Shown piece after piece: positions 1 through 52,748 of a stretch of DNA of 64,000 nucleotides (positions are counted from its first letter, which is position 1; each line of letters starts with the position of its first letter). A program made the position numbers and the translations under genes. The stretch is from Spirochaetota bacterium (GTDB taxonomy: Bacteria > Spirochaetota > UBA4802 > UBA5368): assembly GCA_004297825.1 (NCBI GenBank), contig SCSX01000036.1, forward strand, positions 172,680 through 236,679, read 5' to 3'. The notes beneath the pieces were generated by a model. That model made no database searches, was not told the origin of the DNA, and saw nothing but the letters and a program-made list of their open reading frames with translations.

Positions 1-237
1 GCGGTGATGCGTACGGGCCTGCACGATTACGTGTTCGTCGAGGGGCAGGACGATACGCTCATTCCACGGGAAGTGGCGCTGGGGTTCCGGGCGTCCAACG
101 GCTACTACGAGGTGCTCTCCGGGCTCAAGGCCGGGGAGCGGGTGGTGACCTCCGCGAATTTCCTCATCGATTCGGAGTCTTCCCTCAAGGCGGCGCTTAA
201 AAGCGCGCGGTCGGGATCGCAGGGGCACAAACATTGA
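1..237 (+). CDS. C-terminal fragment of RND efflux periplasmic adaptor (CusB/CzcB-like membrane fusion protein); 5' end lies outside the window
   Basis: Translation ends ...VVTSANFLIDSESSLKAALKS, the typical C-terminal tail of HME-type MFPs. It overlaps the downstream RND pump start by 4 nt (ATGA-type coupling). Confidence 0.6.
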   Translation, partial: AVMRTGLHDYVFVEGQDDTLIPREVALGFRASNGYYEVLSGLKAGERVVTSANFLIDSESSLKAALKSARSGSQGHKH

Positions 238-3200
238 TACAGAAACTGATCCGCTTCTCCGCGCATAACAGGATGCTCGTCATATTCATGATCGCGGCGG
301 CAATGTTATACGCCTCGTACGCGATCCAGAACATCCCGCTCGACGCGATACCGGATTTATCGGACACCCAGGTCATCATCTACACCCGCTGGGACCGGAG
401 CCCCGACATTATCGAGGACCAGGTCACCTTTCCGGTTATCTCGGCGCTCCTGGGCGCGCCCAGGGTGAAGACGATACGCGGCTTTTCGGACTTCGGGTTT
501 TCCTACGTGTACGTGATCTTTCACGACGGCACCGACATCTACTGGGCGCGCAGCCGGGTGACCGAGTATCTCTCGCGCATACAGGGAGCGCTTCCCGCCG
601 GCGCGAAGATGGAGCTGGGGCCCGACGCGACGGGCGTGGGCTGGGTTTACCAGTACGTCCTCGTGGATAAAAGCGGCAAGTTCAACCTCTCACAGCTTCG
701 CTCCTTCCAGGACTGGTACTTAAAATATTCCCTGCAGAGCGTGCAGGGAGTTTCGGAGGTGGCGACCATTGGCGGCTTCGAACGCCAGTACCAGGTGATC
801 GTGGACCCCAATCGGCTGCAAAGCTTCGGGCTCTCGATCATGGACGTGATGGAAGCCGTTAAGAAGGGGAACAATGAATCCGGCGGGAGGCTTCTTGAAT
901 GGAGCGGGCGCGAGTTCATGGTGCGCGCGCGCGGTTACGTGAAGGGGACCGAGGAGCTGGGAAATATCGTGGTGAAAACCGGCAAGGAAGGGACGCCGGT
1001 GATGCTCCGCCATGTGGGGACCGTGACCACGGGGCCGCAGATACGCCGCGGTGTCGCTGAGTATAACGGCCTGGGTGACACCGTGGGCGGGATCGTGGTC
1101 ATCCGCCACGGGGAAAATGCGCTCAACGTGATCGAGCGCGTGAAGGCGCGCATCGAGGAGATAAAGCCTTCGCTTCCCGCGGGCGTCGAGCTCGTCTCCG
1201 TCTACGACCGCTCGGAGCTCATCCATGCGTCCATCGACAACCTCAAGGAAGAACTCATCGTCGAAATGGCGATCGTTTCCCTGGTCATACTCGTGTTCCT
1301 GTGGCACATCCCCTCGGCGCTGGTGCCCATCATCACCATTCCCGTATCGGTCCTGCTCGCCTTCATCCCCATGTTCCACGCGGGGATAAGCTCCAACATC
1401 ATGAGCCTGGCGGGGATCGCGATATCCATAGGCGTGCTCGTGGACGGCGCGATCGTCGAGGTGGAGAACGCGTACAAAAAGATCGAGCTCTGGATCGAGG
1501 GGGGCAGGAAGGGCGACTTCCACGAGGTGCGCCTGCAGGCGCTGGTCGAGGTGGGGCCGTCGGTGTTCTTCTCGCTCCTCGTGATCGCGGTCTCGTTCCT
1601 GCCCATCTTCACGCTCGTGGACCAGGAGGGGCGCCTGTTCACGCCGCTCGCGTGGACGAAAACGCTGGCCCTTGCTCTGGCCGCGCTCCTGGCCGTGACG
1701 CTCGACCCGGCGATACGCATGCTTTTTTCCCGGGCCGATCCGATCAGGATCAAGAATGCCCTGCTGTCCAAGATCGTGAACACCGTCGCGGTGGGAAGGT
1801 ACTTCAAAGAGGAGGAGCACCCCGTCAGCAAAATCCTTTTCGCGTTATACGAAAAGCCTTGCCGCTGGGTGCTCGAACACCCGTTGAAAACCATACTTGC
1901 CGCGATATTCATCGTGGGCGTATCGATCCCCGTATATTTCCGTCTTGGCTCCGAATTCATGCCGCCCCTGAACGAGGGAACCATTCTCTATATGCCGACG
2001 ACCCTTCCCGGCATTTCCGTCACCGAGGCGTATAAACTTCTTCGAATACAGGACCGCATACTCAAGTCCTTTCCCGAGGTCGAGAGCGTGTTCGGCAAGG
2101 CGGGCCGCGCCGAGACAAGCACCGACCCCGCGCCCTTCTCCATGATGGAGACGACGGTGGTTCTGAAATCCCGGCTGGAATGGCGTGAGAAACCGCGCTG
2201 GTATTCGTCGTGGGCACCGGGATGGATGAAACGGGTTTTCCGTACCGTGTGGCATGACCGCATCAGCTATGACGAGCTCATCACACTGATGGATTCCGAG
2301 ATGCGGATACCCGGCGTATCCAATGCGTGGACCATGCCCATCAAGGGACGCATCGACATGCTCACCACGGGCGTACGCACGCCCATAGGCATAAAGGTAT
2401 TCGGTTCCGACTTGAAGGAGATACAGCGTATCGGCGAGGACATAGAACGAGCGCTCAAGGATTTTCCGGGCACGCGCAGCATCTTCGCTGAGCGCGTAGG
2501 CGGTGGCTATTACATGGACATCGTTCCCAAGCGTGAGCTGCTCGCACGCTACGGCCTCACCATTGACGATCTCCAGAACGTCGTCATGTCGGGCATAGGC
2601 GGCGACACGGTCACCACGTCGATCCAGGGCAGGGAGCGCTACTCGGTGAGCGTGCGCTTCCCGCGCGAGCTCAGGGGCGAGCTTGACCAGATGGAGCGCC
2701 TCACGGTGCGGACGATGGACGGCGCGAACATCCCCATCCGTGAGCTCGCGGAGCTTAAACTCACCTACGGACCTGCCATGATCCGCGATGAGAACGGCAT
2801 GCTCGCGGGCTACGTCTACGTGGACGTGACCGGGCGCGACGTGGGCGGGTACGTGGAAGAGGCGAAGGAGATCGTCAAAAAGAGCGTGAAGCTTCCCGCC
2901 GGCTACACCATGATCTGGAGCGGGCAGTATGAAAACATGCAGCGTGTCGCAGAGCGCCTCAAGCTCGTTATTCCCGTGACGCTCTTTCTCATCTTCATGC
3001 TCCTTTACTTTAACACTAAATCGGTGATCAAGACCGGCATTGTCATGCTCGCCGTCCCCTTCTCGCTCGTGGGCGCCGTGTGGCTCCTGTACGCTTTGGG
3101 CTACCAGGTGTCCATCGCCGTGTGGGTGGGCATGATCGCCCTCATGGGCCTGGACGCGGAGACCGGCGTCTTCATGCTGCTCTTCCTGGACCTGTCCTAC

Positions 3201-3476
3201 GAAGACGCGAAGGCGCGCGGCCGCCTCACGAACATGTACGAGCTCGAGGAGGCGATCATCCACGGCGCCGTCAAGCGCATCCGTCCCAAGATCATGACCG
3301 TGATGGCAGCCGCCATGGGCCTTATGCCCATCATGTGGTCCACCGGCGCCGGGGCGGACGTTATGAAGAGGATCGCGGCTCCCATGGTGGGGGGGCTGTT
3401 CACGTCGTTCCTGCTGGAGTTGCTGGTGTATCCGGCGGTGTATTTGCTGTGGAAGAAGAGAGAGTTGGGAGTGTAA
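234..3476 (+). CDS. czcA: Heavy-metal efflux RND permease, CusA/CzcA family (1080 aa)
   Basis: Full-length ~1080 aa, 12-TM RND architecture. Carries the conserved GVLVDGAIVEVEN motif and matches CusA/CzcA end to end. The antisense ORFs 720..1820 and 1845..3482 are artefacts of GC-rich coding DNA. Confidence 0.9.
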   Translation: MIQKLIRFSAHNRMLVIFMIAAAMLYASYAIQNIPLDAIPDLSDTQVIIYTRWDRSPDIIEDQVTFPVISALLGAPRVKTIRGFSDFGFSYVYVIFHDGTDIYWARSRVTEYLSRIQGALPAGAKMELGPDATGVGWVYQYVLVDKSGKFNLSQLRSFQDWYLKYSLQSVQGVSEVATIGGFERQYQVIVDPNRLQSFGLSIMDVMEAVKKGNNESGGRLLEWSGREFMVRARGYVKGTEELGNIVVKTGKEGTPVMLRHVGTVTTGPQIRRGVAEYNGLGDTVGGIVVIRHGENALNVIERVKARIEEIKPSLPAGVELVSVYDRSELIHASIDNLKEELIVEMAIVSLVILVFLWHIPSALVPIITIPVSVLLAFIPMFHAGISSNIMSLAGIAISIGVLVDGAIVEVENAYKKIELWIEGGRKGDFHEVRLQALVEVGPSVFFSLLVIAVSFLPIFTLVDQEGRLFTPLAWTKTLALALAALLAVTLDPAIRMLFSRADPIRIKNALLSKIVNTVAVGRYFKEEEHPVSKILFALYEKPCRWVLEHPLKTILAAIFIVGVSIPVYFRLGSEFMPPLNEGTILYMPTTLPGISVTEAYKLLRIQDRILKSFPEVESVFGKAGRAETSTDPAPFSMMETTVVLKSRLEWREKPRWYSSWAPGWMKRVFRTVWHDRISYDELITLMDSEMRIPGVSNAWTMPIKGRIDMLTTGVRTPIGIKVFGSDLKEIQRIGEDIERALKDFPGTRSIFAERVGGGYYMDIVPKRELLARYGLTIDDLQNVVMSGIGGDTVTTSIQGRERYSVSVRFPRELRGELDQMERLTVRTMDGANIPIRELAELKLTYGPAMIRDENGMLAGYVYVDVTGRDVGGYVEEAKEIVKKSVKLPAGYTMIWSGQYENMQRVAERLKLVIPVTLFLIFMLLYFNTKSVIKTGIVMLAVPFSLVGAVWLLYALGYQVSIAVWVGMIALMGLDAETGVFMLLFLDLSYEDAKARGRLTNMYELEEAIIHGAVKRIRPKIMTVMAAAMGLMPIMWSTGAGADVMKRIAAPMVGGLFTSFLLELLVYPAVYLLWKKRELGV

Positions 3477-3480
3477 GTAC

Positions 3481-3519
3481 AACGGAATTTAACAGGGATA
3501 TACAGGATGAGCAGGATTA
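3481..3519 (-). repeat. ATCCTGT-rich repeat element, copy E1-left (minus orientation)
   Basis: The reverse complement reads AATCCTGCTCATCCTGTATATCCCTGTTAAATTCCGTT. This matches copies at 3891-3930, 4139-4183 and 19105-19143 (rc), consensus AATCCTGTTAATCCTGTcTATCCCTGTTaAAT. Confidence 0.7.
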
Positions 3520-3890
3520 GTTAATTCTTTCAATGACAGTCTTCTATATTCCAGCCGCGAATTACCAAAATTGATAAGCAGTCCAACCTCAATACCGGTT
3601 GCCTTGAGGTAATTTATGATCTGTGCCTGATGTTCCGGTAATAGTTTTTTTATGGCCTTCAACTCGACTATGACCTTATCTTCTATCAATAAATCAGAAT
3701 AATATTCTCCGACACAATGATCTCTGAACATTACTTTGATCGGGAATTGCTTTTTTACGGAAAGTCCTTTTTCCTTTAATGTCAGAAATAGGGCATGTTC
3801 ATAAACAGATTCAAGAAAACCCACCCCAAGTTCGTTGATAACTTCAAACGAACATCCGATGACCATTTTTGATATTTCCTCATATTTCAT
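3489..3890 (-). CDS. GxxExxY family protein (PD-(D/E)XK-like). Start chosen at MKYEEISK; the annotated ORF runs on to 3923 through the flanking repeat.
   Basis: GVGFLESVYEHAL contains the G-x-x-E-x-x-Y motif and ...GIEVGLLINFG is typical of the family. AT-rich codon usage unlike the flanks. Both ends of the ORF run into copies of the ATCCTGT repeat element. Confidence 0.7.
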   Translation of the reverse strand: MKYEEISKMVIGCSFEVINELGVGFLESVYEHALFLTLKEKGLSVKKQFPIKVMFRDHCVGEYYSDLLIEDKVIVELKAIKKLLPEHQAQIINYLKATGIEVGLLINFGNSRLEYRRLSLKELTNPAHPVYPC

Positions 3891-3930
3891 ATCCTGTAAT
3901 CCTATATATCCCTGATAAATCAATTCGTAG
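3891..3930 (+). repeat. ATCCTGT-rich repeat element, copy E1-right (plus orientation)
   Basis: ATCCTGTAATCCTATATATCCCTGATAAATCAATTCGTAG. It is inverted relative to 3481-3519, so the two bracket the GxxExxY gene. Confidence 0.7.
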
Positions 3931-4090
3931 TCATAGCAGTCATATTAAATGAAAATAGATATCTGCATCTATTAATACTTTTCAAAGGGTTTTTTCCTGT
4001 GCTTTTTTCTGGGAAATTTGCCTTTTTTAATTTGTAGCACAGACATAGAGATCAGCGGTTTAGCTGTCGTGGAATTAAAGGAAATTAACA

Positions 4091-4183
4091 AGGCTGTACA
4101 GGATGGTCAGGATGAGTGGATTCTCTCATACCGCCCCCCAATCCTGTTAATCCTGTCTATCCCTGTTGAATCAATTCGTAAAG
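4091..4183. repeat. Complete palindromic copy (E2) of the ATCCTGT element, with no cargo gene
   Basis: Left arm 4091-4119 is AGGCTGTACAGGATGGTCAGGATGAGTGG (minus-type). Right arm 4139-4183 is CAATCCTGTTAATCCTGTCTATCCCTGTTGAATCAATTCGTAAAG. A ~20-nt spacer separates them, and the tail ...AATCAATTCGTA is shared with copy 3891-3930. Confidence 0.7.
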
Positions 4184-4251
4184 TATGTTGTCTTATGAGG
4201 TATATTTCTGTCGCCCGGAGCGAAGTCAGACGACGTCAAATGTTTCTTCCT

Positions 4252-4872
4252 CTATAATTTCAACTGAGTATCAGTCACATGCTTTTCCCTGTAAGGAAAT
4301 CCCTTTTCAAACTCCTCCAGCTCCGTGGTGTCGATCTTAAACACCGGATCTTCATGGAATTTTCCCCGGACCCCCTTCAATCCGTTTTCCTGCAGCTCCA
4401 GCGCCATGAACGCATCGAAATTTGCGCCCTCCGATGTCGATATGCCATATTTCTGGGCATTTTCGAATCCAAATCGGTGGTAATACGCGGGGTTTCCAAA
4501 TATTATAATCGCCTTGTATCCCATGCTTTTCGCGCACGCAATCGAATGCCTCATCAATTGCGATCCGACGCCCTTCCCCTGGTGCGACGGCAGTACGCTC
4601 AAGGGCCCCATGCATAGTACTTCGTGCGCGATGCCTGTATCGTCAACCACGCTCGCTTTCGAATACACGATGTTGCCGATTATTTTGCCTTCATGAATCG
4701 CGACCATATCCAGCTCGGCGATAAAGGCGGGAACCTGACGCAGATTGCGAAGAAGGAGATGCTCGTCGCAGCCGAGTTTATAGATATCCCAGAAGGCTTC
4801 GCGGGTCAGGAATTCTGTTTCCTGGAAGTCGGCGGGGGTTGAGAGGCGTATGGTTGGGTTCATGGTTTTCAT
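4252..4872 (-). CDS. GNAT family N-acetyltransferase (YhbS-like)
   Basis: 206 aa containing the acetyl-CoA-binding motif ...QGKGVGSQLMRHSIACAKSMGYKAIIIFGNPAYYHRFGF. An alternative start at MNPTIRL (4863) is possible. Confidence 0.8.
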   Translation of the reverse strand: MKTMNPTIRLSTPADFQETEFLTREAFWDIYKLGCDEHLLLRNLRQVPAFIAELDMVAIHEGKIIGNIVYSKASVVDDTGIAHEVLCMGPLSVLPSHQGKGVGSQLMRHSIACAKSMGYKAIIIFGNPAYYHRFGFENAQKYGISTSEGANFDAFMALELQENGLKGVRGKFHEDPVFKIDTTELEEFEKGFPYREKHVTDTQLKL

Positions 4873-4995
4873 TCCTTATCTTTAATCGATTGTGTTGTCC
4901 AGTTTTATTGGGGAACGGCATAGTAGCGTCCTGATTGTACTAAATACTCTTTGGAAACAATCTTCTATAGCAGGGCAGCGGCGGTAATTATCAAC

Positions 4996-6234
4996 TCATG
5001 CCTTTTTTATATCCTTTTGAACTTGGTGCCATGATCCTTTGGTTTTTCTAATTTGGCGATTGATAATAATGCTATCATAATCATTGGGATCGAATTCCGA
5101 TTCACATTCTGAGGAAGGGGCATTTTGAATACTTTTTATTTCATCTATGATATCTTTATCATCTGCATGCTTGCTGGAATTACTATCAAAGTTTTTCATT
5201 CTCCAACGTGGTGCGTATGTATCCCACAACCTTGCAACAAGTAATCCGTGCTCCTTCGGTGGGCTGGGGGCGAATGAAAATAATCCTTTATCTTTTTCAC
5301 TCTGCGGATACTCTGAATAATATTTATTAATTTCACGAAGATCAGCTTTCAATTTATTTCCCCATACAAACTCTTGATCATCTCTTAAAAATAAAGGCGC
5401 ACATTTTTGGTGCAATTTGTCAGAAGAAACAAATAACATACAGAATGGAAGGTATAACAGATAAGCCATATCAATACGATTTGATGGCCGATGAGAAGAT
5501 ATTAAATTTGCGGCAATAGCTATTTGGAAAAATATTTCGACTATCATTATATATGCCACATACGGGGCATGCATGACTAGAGGTGGGCAATTAGCTAGAT
5601 AATATCGTTTTAGTATTTTAGGGTGTAAGTGTTCGGGGACGTTAAATAGTATTATGGCATATTTTAACAAATCAATACCATTCTCTCTTTTCGTAACAAT
5701 ATTTTCTGATATTGTTTTTGCTTCTTTGAGAGATCTGCAAGACTTGTTACTTATTCCCAGTTGACGTAATATATTTGCAAAAGACTCCAGATCAAGTGCT
5801 TTTAGTGATTCCCGCCATAAATACGCATAATCACGCTCAATGCTAGAAAACTCGCGTTTTTGCCATCGCGAAAATACTATAGCTTCAGGTGTATTTTCAA
5901 ATACTACATTATGTTTATTATTACTTTTAACATACCGACCCCCTGCAATTGGGATTTGTCCGGTCATAGGAACTCGAGAACCAAGAAGATTATTTATTGC
6001 CAATATATCATGATGAATATTTGGGCCGCCATGCATCTCAGGGAATTTATCAGCAATAATACCAACTTCTTGCTCAGTTGAACGACCTTCTCGAATTGAT
6101 TTGCTTAAATCAGCCAAAGTTTCAATATAAAAAATAGGGCAGATGTTCGCTATAAAAAAATGATCAAACCAAACTGATTCATCAACACTAAGCGATTGCA
6201 GAAATGATTTATCAAAAAGAGATATTGGCCCCAT
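4996..6234 (-). CDS. Hypothetical protein, 412 aa, strongly AT-rich (foreign composition); I recognise no domain
   Basis: Long uninterrupted ORF in DNA far more AT-rich than the ~65% GC background. Lys/Asn/Ile-rich, with no motif I can assign. It lies inside the repeat-bounded island. Confidence 0.6.
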   Translation of the reverse strand: MGPISLFDKSFLQSLSVDESVWFDHFFIANICPIFYIETLADLSKSIREGRSTEQEVGIIADKFPEMHGGPNIHHDILAINNLLGSRVPMTGQIPIAGGRYVKSNNKHNVVFENTPEAIVFSRWQKREFSSIERDYAYLWRESLKALDLESFANILRQLGISNKSCRSLKEAKTISENIVTKRENGIDLLKYAIILFNVPEHLHPKILKRYYLANCPPLVMHAPYVAYIMIVEIFFQIAIAANLISSHRPSNRIDMAYLLYLPFCMLFVSSDKLHQKCAPLFLRDDQEFVWGNKLKADLREINKYYSEYPQSEKDKGLFSFAPSPPKEHGLLVARLWDTYAPRWRMKNFDSNSSKHADDKDIIDEIKSIQNAPSSECESEFDPNDYDSIIINRQIRKTKGSWHQVQKDIKKA

Positions 6235-6284
6235 TGCTTTTTTATCTCATCGGAGATTCAAATATCTTTGGTTAAGTTTTCCAG

Positions 6285-6320
6285 TAATATACAGGAATTT
6301 AACAGATTCACTATCCCCAA
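6285..6320 (-). repeat. Partial copy (E4) of the ATCCTGT element at the right edge of the AT-rich island
   Basis: CAGGAATTTAACAG (6293-6306) is the reverse complement of the CTGTTAAATTCCTG core found in E1-left, and it is followed by ...ATTCACTATCC. Confidence 0.45.
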
Positions 6321-7169
6321 CACACCCCCTTCCCTGGCGGGTCCGGTCTCGGCGTGCAATGGCGCTGCTCTTTATCTTAGTCACTACATATAACAAAAAT
6401 GTAATAAGTCAACCACAATTCCGCCTGTGTTGTGCGGACCCCCACCGGAAGTACAATCAAACAGCCTCCCTCTTGAAAAAAGGGCGGAGGCCGGCGGTTC
6501 CGATGCGCATGAGGGAGGGAAAAGCAGGGAATGCCGGTTGCGTGTAAAAGTTAACGTGCGGAAGGAGAAGATATCTCACCCGATGAGGCCGGGTTCGAAA
6601 TGACAAGGGTGGGGGCGGCCGATGCCGTCATTAAGCAATTCAGTCGATCGCATACAGGCCGGGAGGCTGGTTTTGTAATAGAACTTCTACAACCAGTCGC
6701 GGACACGGATGTCCGCGCAGCCGAGGCGGGCAGGATGCCCATTCGCAGGCTGCCAAATGAGGAGTATTTTTCAGTAACTCCGTTATTGCACATCCGGAAT
6801 CTTAAGCGCCGTCTCATTACAATTTGTAGTGTTTTGCAAACAGACCCTCGATCGCCGCGCCTTTGCGGCAAACCAAATCCGCCCACTGCGATGGACAGGA
6901 TGTCCAAGTGCCGGGCGCGCGACACGATGTCGCGTCTGCGCCCGGCGCTGAGCCAAATCCCACGTAGTGGGTTTGGCGAGAAAGGGCGGCCAAGGCCCTC
7001 GCGCCGCTTGAGCGAGGCCGGCGCTGACGCGACCTCCTGTCGCAGCGCCGGCATTAGGACATCCTGTCCGTCACGGCGGGGGGTGCAGGGGGTGTCCGCC
7101 GCACGACACCCCCTGCAAAAGCACGCTCCTGCCAGGGGCACTCCCGCAGGGGAAAGCGCAGCCCCGCAC

Positions 7170-7508
7170 TCAGCGTTTCTTCTTCCCGCCCTTCTTCACC
7201 ACCAGCTCATACGACATATCGATAAGCCTCTTCACCTCGCCGTCCGGCACCTCACCGTCAAGGATGATGGTGTTCCAGTGCACCTTGTTCATGTGGTACC
7301 CGGGGATGATTGACGAATAGCGCTCGCGCAGCTCCATCGCGAGAAATGGCTCGCACTTGAGGTTGATCCAGAGCGGTTTCGCTTCGAGCGCCACGAGCGC
7401 GAAAATTTTCCCGTTCACCTTCGCCGTGAGCACGTCGATCCCGAAGGGGAAATCCTCGTATGCTCCCTCTTTCGCAAGGAGGTGTGCGCGGAGTTTTTTA
7501 AGGTTCAT
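7170..7508 (-). CDS. MmcQ/YjbR family DNA-binding protein
   Basis: MNLKKLRAHLLAKEGAYEDFPFG...KVHWNTIILDG matches the YjbR family. The start is placed at the internal Met; the ORF extends to 7556. Confidence 0.75.
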   Translation of the reverse strand: MNLKKLRAHLLAKEGAYEDFPFGIDVLTAKVNGKIFALVALEAKPLWINLKCEPFLAMELRERYSSIIPGYHMNKVHWNTIILDGEVPDGEVKRLIDMSYELVVKKGGKKKR

Positions 7509-7552
7509 GGTCCGATACTCCGGTCCTTTTCCAAGATTCGCGTATCCATCCC

Positions 7553-10387
7553 TCACGCCTTCTCGTCCAGCACCTCGCGAATCTTCCTCGCGAACGCCTC
7601 CGGGGCGTACGGCTTGCCGATAAAGTGCAGCCCTTCCTCGAAGATGCCGTGACGCAGGATCACGTCGTCCGTGTAACCGGAGCTGAAAAGGACTTTAATT
7701 CCCGGACGGATATTCGCGATCCGCCTGGCAAGGACCCTGCCGTTCATTCCCGGCAGAACAACATCGGTGACCAGGAGATCGATTTTTGTTTCCGTCCGCT
7801 TCGCGGCCTCGAGCGCGCTCTCCGCATCGGGGTAATGAAGCACCGTGTAACCGAACCTGCGCAGGACCTTGATGGTGAAGTCCCGTACCACGGGCTCGTC
7901 CTCGACCAGCATCACCGTCTCGGTGCCGGTCGCAGGGCCCATCGCCGCCCTGTGCACGGCGCCCGCCGCGGCCGCCCCCGCGGCAGCGGGAAGGAATATC
8001 GTCACCGTCGTCCCCTTCCCCGGTTCCGATTCGATCTCGATCGATCCCTTGTTCTGCTTCACCGATCCGTACACCGTGGCAAGGCCCAGCCCCGTCCCCT
8101 TGCCGCGGCCCTTCGTCGTGTAAAAAGGCTCGAAGAGGTGCTCCAGCGTTTCGGCGGACATGCCGCATCCGCTGTCGCGTACCGTAAGCTTCAGATACGG
8201 ACCGGGGGCGACCTCGGCATGGGAGGCGCAGTACGCGTCGTCCAGGTCGGCATGGGCGGTCTCGATGGTGAGCGCGCCCCCGTCCTGCATCGCGTCCCGG
8301 GAATTTACGACCAGGTTGATGATGATCTGCTCAAACTGCCCCGGGTCGATCCGGACGATCCCGATATCGTCCCGGAGGTTTGTCGTGAGCGTGATGTCTT
8401 CCCCGATGATCCGCTTGAGCATTCTCTGCATCTCGCCCAGCGCGCGATTGATGTCGAGCATCTGCGGCTCGATGATCTGCTTCCTGCTGAAGGCGAGGAG
8501 CTGTTTCGTAAGCGAGGCCGCGCTCACGGAGGCCTTGTGTATCTCCGTCAGGGTGGCGTGGAGCGGATCGTTGGGCGAGAGGTCCAGCAGGGCGAGCGAG
8601 GAATTTCCCATTATGGCCGTTAATAAATTGTTGAAATCGTGCGCGATCCCGCCGGTAAGCCGTCCTATGGAATCCATCTTCTGGGCCTGCCGAAGCTCGT
8701 CCTGGAGCCGCTGCTTCTCCTCCTCCGCGATTTTCTGCTCCGTCACATCGCTGCACACGACGAGGACGGAGATCACCCCGTCGGGACTATGCACTGCGCG
8801 GGCGACCTCGTCCACCCACAGGATGCTCCCGTTCTTCCTGATCTTACGGAACTGCCAGCGGAACGTTTCTCCCGGGTTTTCCAGGCAGATGCCCAGCTTC
8901 CTGACGACCTCACTTTTGTCCGGCTCGTAAAACACCTGCAGCACCGGCCTGCCGACGAGTTCCTCGATGGAATACCCGAGCTGGCTCGCGCCGAAATCGT
9001 TGACCGATACTACCGTTCCCTCCGTATCAAGCGTGAAGTACATCGTGGGGTTGTCGCGGTACAGGGCCCTGTACCGCTCCTCGCTTGCGCGCAGGGCTTC
9101 CTCGGCACGTTTACGCTCCGTGATGTCGCGGATCGATTCGATCGATCCTATTATCGCGCCCTCACCGTCGAAGAGCCGCGATGCAGCGATGAAAATGTAT
9201 GCCCCCCGATTCCCGTACAGCGACGGCACGAACACCTCCGCGTAGATGACGTTCCCGTTCCGCCTGACGTAATCGTACCGGGCGACGAGCGCGGGATCGT
9301 CGTTGTCCAGGAGGTCCATGATGTAGGAGCGCGGCCGGCCGTAGAAGGGAACGGCGCTGTAGTGGTGGTCCATGCCCAGGATGTCCTTTTTCTCGACGCC
9401 CGTCATCACCTCGATCGCGCGGTTCCACGCAATGATCTTTTTTTCGGCGTCGATGATGAACGTCGCGTCCGGAAGGAACTCGATTATATCGGACAGCTGT
9501 CTGTTGGCGTTTCTAAGCTTCTCCTCGGCGCGGGCGCGTTCGGTGATATCCCGGACGAGCACCAGCACCTTATCGTCGTCCATGGCGATCATCCTTGCCG
9601 ACCAGATCTCGGAGTCCTCGGCCATGGAAAGAAAATATTCGAATTCGGTGACTGCTTTTGTCTTGAGGGCGCTCTCTATTTTTTCGAGGACCAGCGCACG
9701 CTGGTCCGGCATGAAGGCCATGTCGCGGATGTTTTTTCCGAGTATCTCGGACGGGGGGAACAGCAGTTCCTCGCTCTTCTCGGCCTTGAAGTCGAGAAAT
9801 ACCCCGTCCCGCGAGAGCACAAACATGAGGTCCGGCATCGCCGCGATGAGGGACCGGTTCCACCGCTCGCTTTCGTGGAGCGACCGTTCCATCAGCTTCC
9901 GTCCGCTGATATCACGGCAGAGCGAAAGGATGCGCAGTTCCCCGCCCTTCCCGTACACGGTCGCGTTGATCTCGACGGTCGTGACGGCGCCGCCGGGTCC
10001 GGCGTAGTCTATTTCAAGATCCCTGATGCGCCCCTGCTCCAGGCATACCTTGACGGCCAGGGCGTTCCGTTCCCTGTCGTACGGCGCCGTCCATTCAATG
10101 ACGCTCCTGTTCATGATATCGGCCAGCGATTCATGGCCGGTCAGCCGCACGTATTGGCTGTTCGCATCCACGACCGTTCCATCGCCTTTCAGGATGACGA
10201 ACCCGGTATCCGTCGTTTCGACGAGTTCCCTGTATTTTTGCTCAATTTCATTCATCGCCGTGCACGCACCCGTCTCGTATTTTCCGCCCCGCGGGAGGCG
10301 GGTTTCCGGTTCAAGGGGAATTTCCCTGGGATATTTGAAAACCCGGTCCCACGTCCCGGGTAATTCGCAATGGTCGAAGGTGCTCAT
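7553..10387 (-). CDS. Multi-PAS hybrid sensor histidine kinase with a C-terminal receiver domain
   Basis: Several PAS/PAC blocks carrying repeated ...DITERKRAEEALR... linkers. H-box IAHDFNNLLTAI, then HATPase N/G boxes (...VRDSGCGMS..., GTGLGLATVY). C-terminal REC domain (VLLVEDEPVVR...DLLVTDVVLPGMNG). Start is uncertain among 10552, 10387 and 10255. Confidence 0.85.
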   Translation of the reverse strand: MSTFDHCELPGTWDRVFKYPREIPLEPETRLPRGGKYETGACTAMNEIEQKYRELVETTDTGFVILKGDGTVVDANSQYVRLTGHESLADIMNRSVIEWTAPYDRERNALAVKVCLEQGRIRDLEIDYAGPGGAVTTVEINATVYGKGGELRILSLCRDISGRKLMERSLHESERWNRSLIAAMPDLMFVLSRDGVFLDFKAEKSEELLFPPSEILGKNIRDMAFMPDQRALVLEKIESALKTKAVTEFEYFLSMAEDSEIWSARMIAMDDDKVLVLVRDITERARAEEKLRNANRQLSDIIEFLPDATFIIDAEKKIIAWNRAIEVMTGVEKKDILGMDHHYSAVPFYGRPRSYIMDLLDNDDPALVARYDYVRRNGNVIYAEVFVPSLYGNRGAYIFIAASRLFDGEGAIIGSIESIRDITERKRAEEALRASEERYRALYRDNPTMYFTLDTEGTVVSVNDFGASQLGYSIEELVGRPVLQVFYEPDKSEVVRKLGICLENPGETFRWQFRKIRKNGSILWVDEVARAVHSPDGVISVLVVCSDVTEQKIAEEEKQRLQDELRQAQKMDSIGRLTGGIAHDFNNLLTAIMGNSSLALLDLSPNDPLHATLTEIHKASVSAASLTKQLLAFSRKQIIEPQMLDINRALGEMQRMLKRIIGEDITLTTNLRDDIGIVRIDPGQFEQIIINLVVNSRDAMQDGGALTIETAHADLDDAYCASHAEVAPGPYLKLTVRDSGCGMSAETLEHLFEPFYTTKGRGKGTGLGLATVYGSVKQNKGSIEIESEPGKGTTVTIFLPAAAGAAAAGAVHRAAMGPATGTETVMLVEDEPVVRDFTIKVLRRFGYTVLHYPDAESALEAAKRTETKIDLLVTDVVLPGMNGRVLARRIANIRPGIKVLFSSGYTDDVILRHGIFEEGLHFIGKPYAPEAFARKIREVLDEKA

Positions 10388-10853
10388 CAAACTACAAGCA
10401 AAAATGAACCAATAATAACCTGTTTTTGCAGGTTTTTCGAGCGCGAATCTCCATCCCGTCCCCATTCGGGATGATCGGGCTCCCGCGCACCTTCGCCCGG
10501 CTTTCATATTAAGGACCGGTTCGTCGAATTTCAGGAACGCGAATCGGCGCAAAAACTATTTGAATTCATCGGGGGGATATGCTACTTTTACCTACGCGGT
10601 TGATGCTCATTTCCCGGTACGGTTCGCGTATCCGCGCCGCGCATCAAGAGAAGCATGTGGCGCCTTGGGCGCCCATGAAAGCGGCGCGACCGGTACGAAG
10701 CCGGGGAATGACGGACCATATATACAGATATGCCTGCCCGTGCCGAAAATCCATTCGCGGGTGCACCAGGAAGCGGGCGCAAATTCTCATCGTTTCGAAA
10801 AATAGCGGACGCGTGCGCCGTAAGCGCCGCGGACAGGAGCGGAGTCGTACGCC

Positions 10854-18272: not shown

Positions 18273-18440
18273 TTTAACCGCGAATGCACGCGAATAGACG
18301 CGAATGGTCTTGGGAAATTCGCGTTTATTGTTGATCATTCGAGGCCTGATTCGCTCGTTCATCCCCAACAGGCTGTGTTAGTAACCGCGAATAGACGCGA
18401 ACGATCTTTTACAATTCGCGTTCATTGGCGTGCATTCGCG
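18273..18440. repeat. Tandem pair of ~55-nt hairpin elements built from CGCGAAT / ATTCGCG units
   Basis: Copy A 18275-18335 is AACCGCGAATGCACGCGAATAGACGCGAATGGTCTTGGGAAATTCGCGTTTATTG. Copy B 18376-18440 is AACCGCGAATAGACGCGAACGATCTTTTACAATTCGCGTTCATTGGCGTGCATTCGCGGTT. Each has an 8-bp stem ACGCGAAT/ATTCGCGT, and the outer ends form a long-range inverted repeat AACCGCGAATGCACGC...GCGTGCATTCGCGGTT. Confidence 0.7.
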
Positions 18441-18457
18441 GTTGCCTTCTTTATCCA

Positions 18458-19075: not shown

Positions 19076-19104
19076 GGGTGCCTCCAGGAACTAACGGCCT
19101 TGCG

Positions 19105-19200
19105 AATTTATTTAACAGGGATATTCAGGATTAACAGGATAGGGTGTCGATATTGAATGAATCCGTTCATCCTGTCTATCCTGTACATCTTTGTTAATTG
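19105..19200. repeat. Complete palindromic copy (E3) of the ATCCTGT element in the pncB-pncA spacer
   Basis: Left arm 19105-19143, read as its reverse complement, is CCCTATCCTGTTAATCCTGAATATCCCTGTTAAATAAAT. A 15-nt spacer follows. Right arm 19159-19200 is AATCCGTTCATCCTGTCTATCCTGTACATCTTTGTTAATTG. Confidence 0.7.
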
Positions 19201-19243
19201 CCTTTTCTTCCATTGTCCTTACCCCGTCATACGCGGTGCATGG

Positions 19244-25768: not shown

Positions 25769-25774
25769 TTTTCT

Positions 25775-25860
25775 AATTTTGCCGGGAAGGCATGGTACAG
25801 GATTTGGCGGGAATGCTCGCTCTACAAGGGATATTTCCGGCCTGTGAAAAGGGGGCGGGG
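25775..25860. repeat. Repeat family R2, copy 1 (~85 nt, ~85% identical to 53158-53245)
   Basis: AATTTTGCCGGGAAGGCATGGTACAGGATTTGGCGGGAATGCTCGCTCTACAAGGGATATTTCCGGCCTGTGAAAAGGGGGCGGGG aligns with AAATTTCGCGGAGAAGATATGGTGCAGGATATGGAGGGAGTGCTCGCTCTACAAGGGGTATTTCCGGCCCATGAAGCGGGGGCCGT. Confidence 0.7.
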
Positions 25861-32271: not shown

Positions 32272-32418
32272 GGGCGCCGCCTTTTCGGAAAGTACGGTAG
32301 GGGCCGGAAAGAATAAAATGCAACCAAATTTCCCCCGGCCGCGGTTGGACCGAAATTTTGAGAAAACCTCGTCGACGCCGTCGGGGCGTGTGTATATTAT
32401 GGTGACGAGGACAAAGAA

Positions 32419-32443
32419 GCCCCCCGACCCCCCGAAGGGGGGC
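32419..32443. repeat. Left G/C-hairpin inverted repeat flanking the DUF559 cassette
   Basis: GCCCCCCGACCCCCCGAAGGGGGGC. It matches the reverse complement of 32856-32880 (GCCCCCCGACCCCCCAGAGGGGGGC) at 23 of 25 positions. Confidence 0.75.
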
Positions 32444-32485
32444 AATAGCGCGATCAAATGTTAAAAGTTCACAAGGTGCGAATAT

Positions 32486-32848
32486 TTGAATGCTGGAATA
32501 AAATCACCTCGATACGTGATTGAGCTTGCAAGGGGAATGAGGAAAAATCCAACTGCGGCAGAAAAGAAGTTATGGGAAGAATTGAAAGAGAAAAGGTTCG
32601 ACGGATTAAAATTCAGGAATCAGCATCCCGTGTTCAGGTATATACTTGATTTCTATTGTCATGAAAAGAAGCTGGCAATTGAGGTTGATGGCGATATCCA
32701 TATTAATCAAAAGGAAACTGATGCGTATCGTGAGGACTACTTGAAAAGTCTTGGAATTGTAACAGTGCGCGTGAAGAATATCGATATTGAAGATAGAATT
32801 GAGGAAGTTCTTATCAGGATAAGAAGCGAATTGCGTGATTTGTATTGA
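32486..32848 (+). CDS. DUF559 (Vsr-like) endonuclease-domain protein
   Basis: ...RKNPTAAEKKLWEELKEKRFDGLKFRNQHPVFRYILDFYCHEKKLAIEVDGDIH... is typical of DUF559. The gene is AT-rich relative to its flanks. Confidence 0.75.
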   Translation: MNAGIKSPRYVIELARGMRKNPTAAEKKLWEELKEKRFDGLKFRNQHPVFRYILDFYCHEKKLAIEVDGDIHINQKETDAYREDYLKSLGIVTVRVKNIDIEDRIEEVLIRIRSELRDLY

Positions 32849-32855
32849 TTGCCAT

Positions 32856-32880
32856 GCCCCCCTCTGGGGGGTCGGGGGGC
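32856..32880. repeat. Right G/C-hairpin inverted repeat flanking the DUF559 cassette
   Basis: GCCCCCCTCTGGGGGGTCGGGGGGC, the inverted partner of 32419-32443. Confidence 0.75.
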
Positions 32881-32901
32881 AGAGCGAATGGAGCGTGAAA
32901 C

Positions 32902-35148
32902 ATGAACATTAGCGACGAACTAAACCAGATAATCATGGCAGCCTTCAACGAGGCGAAAAACCGCAAGCACGAGTTTCTCACCCCGGAGCACATGCTCTAC
33001 GCCTCGCTCTTTTTCAAGGAGGGAATCGATATCGTGAAGGGATGCGGCGGGGACGTCGAGGCGCTCAAGGGCGAGCTCGAGACGCACATGACGGAAAAAA
33101 TTCCCCGTGCGGCGGACGATATCGAGCCCGTGCAGTCGCTGGGCTTCCAGAACGTGATGGAGCGCGCCATCTGGCACACGGCGTCGGCGCAGAAGGAGAC
33201 GCTCGACCTGGGCGACGTGGTCGTCTCGATGTTCCAGGAGCACGAATCCCACGCGGCCTTTTTTTTAAAGAAGCAGGGAATCAGCAGGCTCGACGTGCTG
33301 AACTACATCTCGCACGGTGTGGGCGTCGTCCCCGGCGAGGACGAGGGCAAGGCCGACGAGGCCGGGGCGGGCGAGGCCGCCGAAAAACCGAAGGACGACG
33401 CGAAGATTCTCAAATCGTTCACCGTGGAGCTCACGGCCCGCGCGCGCGCGGGCGAGATCGAGCCGCTCATAGGGCGCGACGAGATTCTCGAACGGACCGT
33501 GCAGGTCCTCTGCCGGCGCTTCAAGAACAACCCGGTGCACGTGGGCGAGCCCGGCGTGGGCAAGACCGCGATCACCGAAGGCCTCGCGCTGCGCATCGCG
33601 GAGGGGAAGGTCCCCGACCTCCTGAAAAACTTCCGCATCTTTTCGCTCGACATGGGCTCGCTCCTGGCCGGGACGCGCTACCGCGGCGATTTCGAGGAGC
33701 GTATGAAGCGGGTGCTTGCCGCCCTTTCGAAGATGGACGACGTGATCCTCTTCATCGACGAGATTCACACCATCGTGGGCGCGGGCGCCGTCTCGGGCGG
33801 CTCCATGGACGCGTCCAACATACTGAAGCCCGCCCTGGCCAGCGGCAAGCTCCGCTGCGTGGGCGCGACGACCGACGACGAGTACCGCAAATACTTCAGC
33901 AAGGACGGCGCCCTCTCGCGCCGCTTCCAGAAGATCGAAGTGCCCGAACCCTCGATAGACGAGACACGGCAGATCCTCGCGGGAATCCGCGACAAGTACG
34001 AGTCCTACCACGGCGTGAAATACACCGAGGACGCCCTCACGGCGGCCTCCGAGCTTTCCGCGAAATTCATCACCGACCGGCACCTCCCGGACAAGGCGAT
34101 CGACGTGATCGACGAGGCGGGCGCGTACGCGCGCCTGTACGGGACCAGCGGGAGCGACGGCGTGATCACGCACCTGGACATGGAGCGCGTCGTCTCGCGT
34201 ATGGCGAAGATTCCGGAGAAGAGCGTCACCTCCTCCGAGCTCGACAAGCTGCGCGACCTCGAAAAGCTCCTTAAAGAGCGCATCTTCGGGCAGGAATCGG
34301 CGGTGAACATGGTGGTCGAGGCGATAAAGCGCTCGCGCGCGGGATTCCGCGAACCGGGCAAGCCCATCGCCTCCTTCCTGTTCGTGGGGCCCACCGGCGT
34401 GGGCAAGACCGAGCTCGCGCGCCAACTCGCCGCGGTGATGGGGGTATCGCTCCACCGCTTCGACATGAGCGAGTACCAGGAGAAGCATACCGTGGCGCGT
34501 CTCATAGGCGCGCCCCCCGGCTACGTGGGCTACGAGGAGGGGGGCCTCCTGACCGAGTACATACGGAAGACGCCGTACGCGGTGCTACTCCTGGACGAGA
34601 TCGAGAAGGCGCACTCCGACATCTTCAACACGCTTCTTCAAGTGATGGATTACGCGACCCTCACCGACAACACCGGCAAGAAGGCTGATTTCCGCAACGT
34701 CGTGATCATCATGACCTCGAACGCGGGGGCGCGTGAAATCGGAAGGCAGCGCATCGGCTTCGAGGAGGCGCCCGTGAACATGGACGCCCTCTCGGCCGCG
34801 GTGGATCGCATCTTCGCCCCCGAGTTCCGCAACCGCCTGGACGCGGTGGTCCAGTTCAACGGCCTCACCCTGGACATCGTGCTGCAGATCGTGAACAAGG
34901 CCCTGGGAGAATTCCGCACGATGCTCGCGGAGAAGAAGGTGGAGCTTCGCGTCACGGACGAGTGCTCATTGTGGCTCGCGAAGAAGGGCTTCTCGCCGGA
35001 ATTCGGCGCGCGCGAGATCGCGCGCCTGGTGCAGGACAAGGTGAAGCGCTTCTTCATCGACGAGGTCCTCTTCGGCAGTCTTTCTAAGGGGGGCGTCGCC
35101 GAGGCGTACGTCGAGAACGACGACGTGGCGATCAGGGTGCTCGAATAG
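32902..35148 (+). CDS. clpA: ATP-dependent Clp protease ATP-binding subunit ClpA
   Basis: N-domain followed by two AAA+ modules with Walker A motifs [10 protein letters not shown] and [10 protein letters not shown], and sensor motifs. 748 aa. The alternative-frame and antisense ORFs 33042..34274 and 33265..34488 are rejected. Confidence 0.9.
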
Positions 35149-49285: not shown

Positions 49286-49442
49286 AAAGGAAGATTTAAT
49301 GAACACAATTAACCCAAGTGGGACTTGGAAAGGCAATACTGCTCAGTTTTGAGAGAACCAGAGTTCTCGAAACCGTTATTAAAATCACGGGTGGAGCGAA
49401 ACTATAGGCCGATGCTTGTAGTTTAGAAGAGAGTAAGGGCAT

Positions 49443-49516
49443 GGGCCTGTAGCTCAGTTGGTTAGAGCGTGCGACTGATAATCGCAAGGTCGGTGGTTCG
49501 ACTCCACTCAGGCCCA
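49443..49516 (+). tRNA. tRNA-Ile (GAT)
   Basis: GGGCCTGTAGCTCAGTTGGTTAGAGCGTGCGACTGATAATCGCAAGGTCGGTGGTTCGACTCCACTCAGGCCCA. The anticodon loop CTGATAA gives GAT. It lies in the 16S-23S spacer. Confidence 0.9.
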
Positions 49517-49557
49517 ATTCGACAAGGTTCTTTGCAAGCTTGAATTGGGGGGTGTAG

Positions 49558-49730: not shown

Positions 49731-52748
<3,018 letters not shown>

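Follow-up and report, generated by a model that had tools for sequence, protein, structure and literature searches.

An AT-rich tract beside czcA in a Spirochaetota genome is probably a patchwork of modules that includes a palindromic GxxExxY nuclease cassette

The AT-rich tract at positions 3481–6320 of the window (the whole 64-kb stretch of DNA analysed here) is probably a horizontally acquired patchwork of independent modules rather than a single island with ATCCTGT repeats at its borders. The first module would be a ~450-bp palindromic cassette (3481–3929) together with its 105-bp gene-less derivative (4077–4181), the second a GNAT gene of intermediate GC, and the third a very AT-rich gene whose 412-aa product belongs to a widespread uncharacterised family. 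In this reading the ATCCTGT repeats are the ends of the first module and of its derivative. We base this reading on direct observations of the anatomy and composition of the tract, of the recurrence of the cassette across phyla, and of the lack of co-occurrence of the three genes elsewhere. The features are listed in Table 1.

Table 1 Features in and around the AT-rich tract (window coordinates).
Feature	Position	Strand	Remarks
czcA/cusA-type RND efflux permease	234–3476	+	native left flank; GC 0.60, GC3 0.83
Complete GxxExxY cassette, two inverted arms around one small nuclease gene	3481–3929	-	~450 bp
czcA-proximal arm, GGAATTTAACAGGGATATACAGGATGAGCAGGAT	3484–3517	+	nhmmer E=8.5e-9 against cross-phylum arm profile
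GxxExxY / PDDEXK_3 nuclease gene	3489–3890	-	GC 0.36, GC3 0.34
Start-codon-proximal arm, ATCCTGTAATCCTATATATCCCTGATAAATCAATTC	3891–3926	+	partly degenerate; E=4.5 against arm profile
Gene-less, internally deleted cassette copy	4077–4181	-	105 bp; nhmmer E=1.9e-8 and 4.7e-4
GNAT (YhbS-like) N-acetyltransferase	4252–4872	-	GC 0.51, GC3 0.63 (intermediate)
412-aa protein, widespread uncharacterised family	4996–6234	-	GC 0.35, GC3 0.26
'Partial copy' of the initial annotation, exact 12-mer GGAATTTAACAG	6294–6305	+	common to the outer end of the arm
GC-rich non-coding gap	6321–7169	no strand	right flank; GC 0.60
yjbR-family gene	7170–7556	-	native right flank
Histidine kinase (HK) gene	7553–10552		next after yjbR; native right flank
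Third copy, gene-less	19100–19212	+	GC-rich intergenic DNA, no island around

The tract has a GC content of 0.394, against 0.577 for the window as a whole. GC falls from ~0.60 to 0.34–0.40 at ~3480 and rises again at ~6320, and the tract is the longest run of 400-nt windows with GC below 0.45 in the 64 kb. The sharp drop described in the initial annotation is real, with abrupt transitions at both edges. Codon usage differs as well: GC3 is 0.34 in the GxxExxY gene and 0.26 in the 412-aa gene, compared with 0.83 in czcA and 0.79 in both the yjbR and the HK gene. The trough is not uniform, however, since the GNAT gene in mid-tract has a GC of 0.51 and a GC3 of 0.63. The tract lies at the meeting point of czcA, on the plus strand, and the minus-strand island genes and yjbR–HK genes. 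The GC-rich gap on the right flank also holds a near-perfect 205-nt hairpin (6879–7083).

Each of the three tract genes has a patchy distribution across phyla, and in the nearest relatives other genes come after czcA. Taken with the foreign GC and GC3 of the segment, this makes horizontal acquisition, as originally proposed, the best reading of the sequence. The closest CzcA proteins are 76–78% identical, too distant for an empty-site comparison, and the genes downstream of them are unrelated; these loci lack all three tract genes, but they also lack yjbR and the HK gene. An exact search of metagenomes for the right flank gave no match. Because no empty site was found, the whole tract may have been acquired from one donor in one event. 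Another organism's DNA could also have been joined to the host's in silico: the DNA comes from a MAG (Spirochaetes bacterium, locus tag EPN93_07750) and the GC jump is extreme. Such an assembly chimera is hardly credible, however, as an independent Logan contig (L001; SRR8426595, 3,752 bp) crosses both junctions at 100% identity, running from the 3' end of czcA across all three genes and a further 590 nt into the GC-rich right flank. In addition, host-type GC returns on either side within one contig, and another copy of the repeat family lies 15 kb off in host-type DNA.

The motif ATCCTGT has 22 matches in the window, against 4.8 expected. At the left edge the repeat and the GC transition do coincide, as had been claimed, with the czcA-proximal arm beginning 8 nt past the czcA stop codon; they do so because the AT-rich tract begins, on the left, with the 450 bp of the cassette itself. 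Its arms are terminal inverted repeats (3487–3508 and 3899–3920 are 91% complementary over 22 nt), each ~30 bp long with three 7-bp ACAGGAT-type boxes at 9-bp spacing. In the czcA-proximal arm the boxes read CAGGGAT, ACAGGAT and GCAGGAT, with a 9-nt period, and this arm also codes for the C-terminal tail of the GxxExxY protein, NPAHPVYPC, and for its stop codon. The gene starts at an ATG (3888–3890), and an in-frame TTG is present at 3923.

The GxxExxY protein scores 143.3 bits against TIGR04256 (cut-off 35) and 145.4 bits against PF13366 (cut-off 22), and residues G25-F-L-E28-S-V-Y31, D67 and E77-L-K79 are all intact. Every one of 50 homologues has the catalytic residues E...D...ExK, and judged from these sequences, purifying selection on the active site is strong. 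A single-sequence AF2 model reached a pLDDT of only 37, and a PD-(D/E)XK fold is predicted from the sequence motifs. The sole ORF of the cassette encodes the ~130-aa PD-(D/E)XK protein, which matched no transposase family in profile searches. The GxxExxY gene is lower in GC than its flank in 53 of 55 other loci. In the window it is 0.24 below the flanking genes, and a gap of at least 0.20 occurs in just one of those 55.

Both ends of the cassette are collinear with the gene-less copy situated 150 bp from it: 3481–3532 corresponds to 4077–4128 (52 nt, 79%) and 3897–3929 to 4148–4180 (33 nt, 88%), with the ORF absent in between. The shorter copy keeps both arms and ~25 nt matching the 3' end of a GxxExxY gene, and 364 interior nt are gone. 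The third copy in the window is inverted relative to it and 81–83% identical from end to end (reverse-complementary to 4070–4181). As a DNA hairpin this third copy has z=-2.6 against shuffles, and one gene-less copy, folded as DNA, is no more stable than its shuffles (z=-1.2).

The initial annotation had taken the repeats for insertion scars or recombination sites of the whole segment, with a partial copy at the right border. On that view 3481–6320 would be a single horizontally acquired island, inserted between czcA and yjbR and edged by att-like ATCCTGT copies. This model would account for the sharp GC transition at each edge and for the arm 8 nt from the czcA stop codon. On the right, a 12-mer identical to the outer end of the arm is found no more than 15 nt from the transition, with weaker similarity adjoining it (6277–6296), and P would be ~0.005 had the last 100 nt of the island been specified beforehand. 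That choice is post hoc, however, and island-like random sequence yields a shared 12-mer with P=0.10; one shared 12-mer is seen in the window, against a mean of 1.35 in window-like random sequence. The 14-mer originally quoted does not match the arm. BLAST gives the 12-mer E=0.24, the same as an unrelated 12-mer match, an equally good partial arm match lies within an ORF (6042–6058), and the right 'partial copy' goes undetected at E<=10 by a profile made from 134 arms. The right-border 12-mer is indistinguishable from chance. The stretch 6277–6310 looks like two arm fragments that overlap (matches of 16/20 and 13/17) and could be a decayed arm. The right fragment is oriented as a left-type arm, so that its interior would face away from the island.

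Other evidence also makes the single-island model very unlikely. A partner for the left arm lies 400 bp away, and the pair encloses the GxxExxY gene; the arms pair locally, as cassette ends, and not across the segment. The same unit stands alone at 19100–19212, and in many phyla GxxExxY genes lie between these same arms, which is at odds with repeats that delimit one island. The GC3 of the GNAT gene (0.63) stands against 0.26–0.34 in its neighbours. Profile searches of the tract ORFs found no integrase or recombinase family, only the GxxExxY, GNAT and 412-aa genes. No tRNA gene is present at the tract, those in the window being confined to 49442–49620 in the rRNA operon, and a search for flanking direct repeats (att) at the tract borders found none beyond chance.

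The patchwork reading is favoured further by the other two genes. The GNAT protein scores above the gathering score for PF13508 (43.1 bits), PF00583 (39.6) and PF13527 (33). Its best homologues, 60–73% identical, are from Firmicutes, Deltaproteobacteria, Methanomethylovorans and Spirochaetota, and the two homologue contexts we looked up are both unrelated to the window. All three genes named in the initial annotation are present, but the 412-aa ORF is not the orphan it had been called: its family comprises 1,986 database clusters at E<=0.001, which rules out that status, and the best 120 of the 1,986 matches are 50–71% identical over their full length. The homologues either stand by themselves, with housekeeping genes on both sides, or belong to defence or mobile islands. 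In 65 other loci the GC of the family follows that of the host (r=0.71), whereas the window gene lies ~0.25 below the GC of its host, which suggests a recent arrival. In 73 loci of the 412-aa family there is neither a GxxExxY nor a GNAT gene, and no ACAGGAT double box; among the loci examined (these 73 and the two GNAT contexts) the three tract genes never occur together.

The cassette recurs widely among bacteria. About 17 phyla are represented in the 80 closest GxxExxY loci (47–71% identity), and among the 70 that have both flanks, 61 show significant inverted repeats flanking the gene. The arm profile and the cross-phylum consensus, aaTtAACATGGATggACAGGATggACAGGAT, were built from 134 unique arms. 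Elements fall into three size classes: gene-less (60–93 bp), partly deleted (137–368 bp) and full (432–550 bp). Copies also occur in arrays (L034; of mixed classes in the Pirellulaceae SH467 genome) and as tandem hairpins (L026 and L067). Distant subfamilies have other boxes (ACGCGGAT, ACACGGAT, ACGCGAAT, ACACAGAT and ACGCTGAT), each present in both arms with 22–27 of 28 positions matching. Across elements an arm consists of three direct 7–8-bp boxes with a 9–10-bp period.

No target-site duplication was found in 40 element copies (direct repeats of 2–9 nt, at any offset), and the sole direct-repeat enrichment at element ends is a palindromic extension of the arms. Cassettes are rare on plasmids (8 of 72,556) and absent from the phage collection, and 2.9 million viral contigs yielded 3 with the arm pattern. 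Within operons, cassettes occupy the gap that separates the stop codon of one gene from the start codon of the next. At one locus (L015) a segment of the flanking gene is duplicated, which is consistent with recombinational insertion.

While the boxes are conserved, complementarity between the arms in the inter-box spacers is 0.26–0.37, against 0.29–0.38 expected; conserved boxes with non-complementary spacers are easier to explain as sites bound by protein than as a stem. In 42 of 49 loci the N-terminus is encoded within the left arm, with the start codon in the outermost box, and so the conservation of this arm is partly due to coding. Just outside that box lies a Shine-Dalgarno (SD)-like motif in 30 of the 49.

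The placement of these signals would also suit arms that act in RNA, as in the intervening sequences (IVS) of 23S rRNA. A ~30-bp stem would enclose the ORF and bury the SD motif and AUG, serving as an RNase III substrate or a translational lock, and the gene-less copies would be stable hairpins of the terminator or mRNA-stabiliser type, not transposon relics. The Coxiella burnetii IVS is of like size and plan, with 428–444 nt, a 28-bp terminal stem, one small ORF and low GC, and is excised by RNase III (PMC4990558). For the sense RNA of the window cassette (3478–3932), the minimum-free-energy and centroid folds are both predicted to pair the arms and to bring the AUG to the top of the stem, and the lack of target-site duplication and the position of cassettes within operons would fit as well. 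We nevertheless regard this explanation as somewhat unlikely. Spacer complementarity at chance is not the covariation expected of a selected stem, the stability of the whole-RNA fold is modest (z=-2.2), one gene-less copy is as DNA no more stable than shuffled sequence (z=-1.2), and action in RNA would by itself leave the invariant nuclease active site unexplained.

A subset of the loci may reflect a host function. The same EcoAI-type HsdR C-terminus lies upstream of the cassette in 18 of the 80 loci and the same HsdM N-terminus downstream in 14, with the cassette 10–12 nt past the hsdR stop codon and 14–20 nt ahead of the hsdM ATG. This fixed placement in one conserved type I restriction-modification (R-M) operon makes vertical co-inheritance or a host function possible in place of selfish spread. 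The cassette would then be a domesticated module of defence systems, notably of this operon family, transferred along with them, and the window copy a stray remnant. Strong purifying selection on the active site would agree with such a role, as would the remnant of the hsdM 5' end that travels with the cassette in L028 and L015. However, 62 of the 80 loci, the window included, lack such R-M genes in the searched 1.5-kb flanks, gene-less and internally deleted copies are dispersed and in arrays, and a PADLOC search gave no match; we therefore think domestication improbable.

To the alternative that the cassette is a selfish or semi-autonomous unit we would give slightly less than an even chance. 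Its nuclease would recognise the boxes of its own arms, and deletion derivatives would persist and multiply as gene-less hairpins, by analogy with REP/RAYT systems. We further suggest, as a possibility that we rate distinctly lower, that GxxExxY cassettes are an undescribed class of ~450-bp miniature genetic element across bacteria, whose nuclease reads the boxes at its own inverted ends. In such a class the boxes would diverge in step with the protein subfamily. The element would spread or be maintained with no target-site duplication, through nuclease-triggered recombination or hairpin/cruciform processing, and gene-less hairpins shed by it would come to populate intergenic DNA. If true, this would provide a PD-(D/E)XK counterpart to the REP/RAYT relationship and to ORF-bearing rRNA intervening sequences. 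The islet itself is ordinary, with three unrelated accessory genes, and the cassette architecture is an interesting by-product.

In REP/RAYT systems a small gene lies between inverted short repeats, gene-less repeats are dispersed or arrayed, and there is no target-site duplication. The cassette is alike in having one small gene in inverted repeats, gene-less copies elsewhere and no target-site duplication. It differs in that its protein is a PF13366 PD-(D/E)XK nuclease, whereas RAYT is an HUH/Y1 transposase; its arms are three direct boxes, whereas a REP is a GTAG-headed imperfect palindrome; and its boxes are common to many phyla, whereas REPs are species-specific. The analogy is one of architecture, the cassette being known here from sequence. 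The Coxiella IVS (S23p) resembles it in length (~430–450 nt), in ~28–30-bp terminal inverted repeats around one small ORF, in a GC below that of the host and in a sporadic, horizontally transferred distribution (PMC4990558). The window copies, however, are intergenic (3481–3929 lies beside czcA) and outside the 23S rRNA gene (49731–52744), whereas IVS lie in helix 25/45; the IVS cargo is the four-helix-bundle S23p (PF05635) in place of PF13366, and the IVS stem is almost perfectly paired, unlike the unconstrained inter-box spacers of the cassette.

MITEs with autonomous parents, such as Correia-type TIR elements, share terminal inverted repeats, internal-deletion derivatives and several copies per genome with the cassette, which differs in lacking a target-site duplication and a DDE or other recognised transposase. 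At ~450 bp, the gene-bearing cassette is also far below the size of any IS. The tract as a whole resembles an integrase-type genomic island in being compositionally deviant and accessory, its genes not following czcA in the nearest relatives examined, but it has no integrase or recombinase, tRNA or above-chance direct repeats, is heterogeneous in composition and spans 2.8 kb. Free-standing PD-(D/E)XK homing endonuclease genes are likewise small, stand-alone and patchy, with an invariant active site and no integration machinery, and they often lodge in or between the genes of another system. They differ from the cassette in not normally lying within inverted box arrays and in leaving no gene-less hairpin derivatives.

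The initial annotation had described a sharp fall in GC content between ~3480 and ~6320, and both sliding-window GC and the GC3 contrast with the flanking genes bore this out. In 400-nt windows, GC content was ~0.60 up to 3400, 0.34-0.40 over 3600-4200, 0.49-0.52 over 4200-4800 and 0.34-0.39 over 4800-6400, returning to 0.55-0.65 beyond 6400. The trough is two-lobed, with a gene of intermediate composition (GNAT) in between. Overall, the tract 3481-6320 has a GC content of 0.394 compared to 0.577 for the whole window, and the longest runs of windows below 0.45 GC fall within it. The DNA of the tract is foreign. The window comes from a Spirochaetes MAG. A chimeric join is unlikely because an independently assembled Logan contig (L001, from SRR8426595) matches the locus at 100% identity over the 3' end of czcA, the three genes and 590 nt of right flank.

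Composition was the only feature of an integrase-type island that we found. The tract contained no integrase, no tRNA gene lay at it, and a promoter and terminator scan gave no excess over shuffled sequences. To place the tract in context, we sought relatives of CzcA among 5.8 billion protein clusters. The closest proteins were 76-78% identical, and their loci kept the cusC-cusB-cusA operon. The genes after it are unrelated, with DUF5661 and TetR among them in one lineage and an MCP among them in another. None of these loci carried yjbR, the histidine kinase (HK) gene or the island genes, so the presence of the island genes after czcA is not conserved. No exact match to the right flank turned up in JGI metagenomes. 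The islet itself is ordinary: a small mosaic of accessory genes in a permissive intergenic site. Rfam gave nothing over 3400-7300 except a match to Bacillaceae-1 below threshold (30.6 bits; gathering score, 35), on a 205-nt, GC-rich, near-perfect hairpin (6879-7083) in the non-coding gap 6321-7169. Its 64-nt arms are 78% complementary and its RNA fold reaches -146 kcal/mol (z=-9.4). The window holds no second copy of this hairpin, and L001 stops inside it.

Genes of the AT-rich tract and its flanks, and cassette copies in the window
Feature	Position	Strand	GC3	Description
czcA	left flank	+	0.83	
Complete cassette, arm 1	3484-3517			GGAATTTAACAGGGATATACAGGATGAGCAGGAT
GxxExxY gene (TIGR04256/PF13366)	3489-3890	-	0.34	
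Complete cassette, arm 2	3891-3926			somewhat degenerate reverse complement of 3484-3517
First gene-less copy	4077-4181			the complete copy's two ends, order and orientation kept
GNAT gene	within 3481-6320	-	0.63	
412-aa ORF	within 3481-6320	-	0.26	
yjbR	right flank	-	0.79	
Histidine kinase (HK) gene	right flank	-	0.79	
Second gene-less (third) copy	19100-19212			reverse complement of 4070-4181, full length, 81-83% identity, loop included

The ATCCTGT heptamer (the reverse strand of ACAGGAT) occurs 22 times in the window compared to 4.8 expected, and it is structured at only three places. At the first, two arms, each a terminal inverted repeat of ~30 bp with three ACAGGAT-type boxes, enclose exactly the GxxExxY ORF. 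The stop codon and last nine codons of the gene (NPAHPVYPC) lie inside one arm, and its ATG directly adjoins the other. We conclude that this cassette forms a separate unit, bounded by ends of its own. The second place resembles the cassette with its middle removed: its ends match those of the complete copy over 52 nt (79% identity) and 33 nt (88%), the gap between them is 19 nt instead of 364 nt, and similarity to the GxxExxY 3' end persists in the 20-25 nt adjoining its left arm. From these alignments we infer that it is an internally deleted copy. The third copy is intergenic, and its surroundings are GC-rich, without any AT-rich tract. An arm profile built without the window recovered five arms there (3482-3520, 4085-4116, 4139-4175, 19108-19143 and 19166-19189) and no further match at E<0.1. 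We rejected ATCCTGT at 46253/46380 and 56898/57211 as further copies; these, the other heptamers inspected, are single chance matches in coding DNA. Separately, a 26-nt inverted repeat, 92% complementary (GCCCCCCGACCCCCCGAAGGGGGGCA; 32419-32444 and 32855-32880), surrounds a 410-nt stretch in another low-GC patch (32401-33000).

Are these repeats also the borders of the tract? It had been proposed that ATCCTGT copies at both edges were insertion scars or recombination sites of one horizontally acquired segment. The left edge does coincide with an arm. The reason is that the leftmost module is the cassette, itself AT-rich (GC 0.36), and not that the repeat is an island border. At the right edge, the partial copy reduces to an exact 12-mer at 6294-6305; the 14-mer originally quoted does not match. 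Simulated window-like sequence had on average 1.35 such 12-mers in common with the arms. In island-like sequence, a shared 12-mer arose with P=0.10, or P=0.005 under the post-hoc requirement that it lie in the final 100 nt. Its BLAST E-value of 0.24 equals that of an unrelated 12-mer elsewhere, an equally good partial arm match lies inside the 412-aa ORF, and the right 12-mer is oriented as a left-type arm, pointing outward from the island. We found no other direct repeats bracketing the tract. The repeats are the ends of cassette copies and not the scars of a whole segment, and the tract should not be called a repeat-bounded island. For annotation more generally, cassette hairpins break assemblies and mimic island borders.

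All three genes of the tract are as first annotated, but the 412-aa ORF is no orphan: its family comprises 1,986 clusters (E<=0.001). The 120 best hits listed share 50-71% identity along their full length, and those with names include Spirochaetota, Planctomycetota, Gammaproteobacteria and Desulfobacteraceae. An alignment of 25 sequences has 73 invariant columns. The protein had no match in Pfam (even at E<=10), NCBIfam, PADLOC, PHROGs or PDB sequences, and Foldseek searches of PDB and BFVD with its AF2 model (pLDDT 74) gave nothing at E<=0.001. A split PIN-like domain was considered and dropped as unsupported. The gene can stand singly between housekeeping genes (L092) or in defence/mobile islands. 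One such island (L094) also has an Eco57I-type enzyme, TIR_2, HNH and SLATT; another (L002) has transposases, AbiEii and Fic. Across 65 metagenomic loci its GC content tracks that of the host (r=0.71) and is at least 0.10 below the flank in only 9, so that the deficit of 0.25 in the window points to a recent arrival. None of 73 loci of the family contained a GxxExxY gene, a GNAT gene or ACAGGAT double boxes. The best GNAT homologues, 60-73% identical, come from Firmicutes, Deltaproteobacteria, Methanomethylovorans and Spirochaetota, and the two contexts examined had no neighbours in common. Separate distributions and two adjoining compositions favor a patchwork of three genes with independent histories over one transfer, and a single mosaic segment from one donor is the less likely origin; the proposal of horizontal acquisition holds for the DNA but not for a single repeat-bounded unit. 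With ~2,000 clusters and no detectable domain or fold match, the 412-aa family, a solitary gene sometimes found in defence islands, is a second, independent target for study. Exactly at the two ends of this ORF, stop and start, lie the copies of a 17-nt direct repeat (4997-5013 and 6232-6248; 14/17 identical; CATKSCTTTTTTATMTC), which may be a cassette border or a product of chance in T-rich DNA.

To see how general the cassette architecture is, we compared the 80 closest GxxExxY loci (47-71% identity) from a one-genome-per-species scan. Their record titles assign them to about 17 phyla, including Planctomycetota, Acidobacteriota, Chloroflexota, Desulfobacterota, Verrucomicrobiota, Pseudomonadota, Nitrospirota, Bacteroidota, Spirochaetota and Chlamydiota. 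Of the 70 loci that have both flanks, 61 showed significant reverse complementarity between upstream and downstream sequences (z>=4 compared to shuffles), and 134 unique arms gave the consensus aaTtAACATGGATggACAGGATggACAGGAT, three boxes at a 9-nt period. Elements fell into three size classes: gene-less (60-93 bp), partly deleted (137-368 bp) and gene-bearing (432-550 bp). Many phyla have genomes with gene-less derivatives, either scattered or in arrays. In Pirellulaceae bacterium SH467 (CP197412.1: 2884464-2887823), six arm-bounded units lie within 3.3 kb, five of them internally deleted (188-267 bp) and one with a full GxxExxY gene, with a repeated spacer between units. More distant GxxExxY genes also have inverted arms, with other boxes at a 10-nt period (ACGCGGAT, ACACGGAT, ACGCGAAT, ACACAGAT and ACGCTGAT), each type fitting both arms at 22-27 of 28 positions. 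Because triple-box inverted arms are almost always present, boxes are specific to subfamilies and gene-less derivatives recur, repeat and protein family can be treated as one testable unit. The gene has a lower GC content than its flanks in 53/55 loci. It was found on 8 of 72,556 plasmids and in 0 of 50,697 phage records, and the arm pattern in 3 of 2.9 million viral contigs. Steczkiewicz et al. (PMC3424549) assign PDDEXK_3 no known function and list multiple transfers between divisions for it, and our literature search found no description of GxxExxY/PDDEXK_3 genomic architecture or of these arms. The main gain here is the identity of the repeats, as the ends of a cassette whose protein belongs to a large family of unknown function. 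The window also holds two tandem gene-less hairpins at 18276-18443 (DNA fold z=-5.9), which make up a second element family of this kind; their ACGCGAAT boxes, at a 10-nt period, match the arms of a distant GxxExxY gene (L076).

One genomic setting recurred. The C-terminus of an EcoAI-type hsdR lay upstream in 18/80 loci and a common hsdM N-terminus downstream in 14, all belonging to one conserved type I R-M operon (L012, L024, L027, L037 and others) whose HsdM N-terminus is 80-95% identical across phyla. The cassette lies 10-12 nt past the hsdR stop codon and 14-20 nt before the hsdM ATG, and it may be a domesticated R-M accessory. At one locus (L015:1434-1975), the first 31 nt of hsdM flank the cassette on both sides (27/31 identical, differences synonymous), which points to recombinational insertion. 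Elsewhere (L028:1950-2230), a 21-nt remnant of the hsdM 5' end lies between two cassette copies and hsdM itself does not follow. These loci bear on how type I R-M operons carry passengers.

In the reading we favor, the cassette would be a nuclease unit of a selfish or semi-autonomous kind; its ends would carry boxes recognised by the nuclease, and its gene-less derivatives would be REP-like. The catalytic residues E28, D67 and E77-x-K79, and also Q91, N94 and Y95, were invariant in 50/50 GxxExxY homologues, which indicates selection as a nuclease. The protein has no sequence relative in the PDB, and a single-sequence AF2 model was unusable (pLDDT 37). In the ACAGGAT family the boxes are fixed, and complementarity of the 2-nt spacers is 0.26-0.37 within elements compared to 0.29-0.38 between elements; this lack of excess fits repeated protein-binding sites rather than a selected stem. 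Alternatively, the cassette may act at the RNA level in the manner of an intervening sequence: in the predicted sense RNA of the window copy, the arms pair and the ribosome-binding region is buried. The outer box, ACATGGAT, has an ATG in frame with the ORF in 42/49 loci, so the arm encodes MDxQDxQD. A nuclease unit of the favored kind could reveal a nuclease-based route by which mini-elements persist.

The cassette resembles three known systems and is a member of none. As in REP/RAYT, a gene lies between inverted repeats and gene-less copies are dispersed, but the protein and the type of repeat differ. As in MITEs and their parent elements, there are inverted ends and deletion derivatives, but the cassette has no transposase and a scan of its copies for target-site duplications was negative. 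The ORF-bearing 23S rRNA intervening sequence of Coxiella (428-444 nt, 28-bp terminal stem, one small ORF, low GC; PMC4990558) is similar in size, terminal inverted repeats, single small ORF and low GC, but the cassette differs in location and cargo, and its spacers do not covary. The architecture is that of a known type, the palindromic mini-element, in altered form, and is of moderate interest. In the window itself, the 23S rRNA match (49731-52744) spans 3,014 nt compared to a 2,925-nt model, ~90 nt extra. Just 3' of this gene lies a group II intron D1-D4 fragment (53051-53138; Rfam RF02001, 48 bits), followed by an AT-rich stretch and by 87-nt and 39-nt repeats that recur ~27 kb upstream (25770-25856 / 53152-53238 and 26546 / 53370 / 54545).
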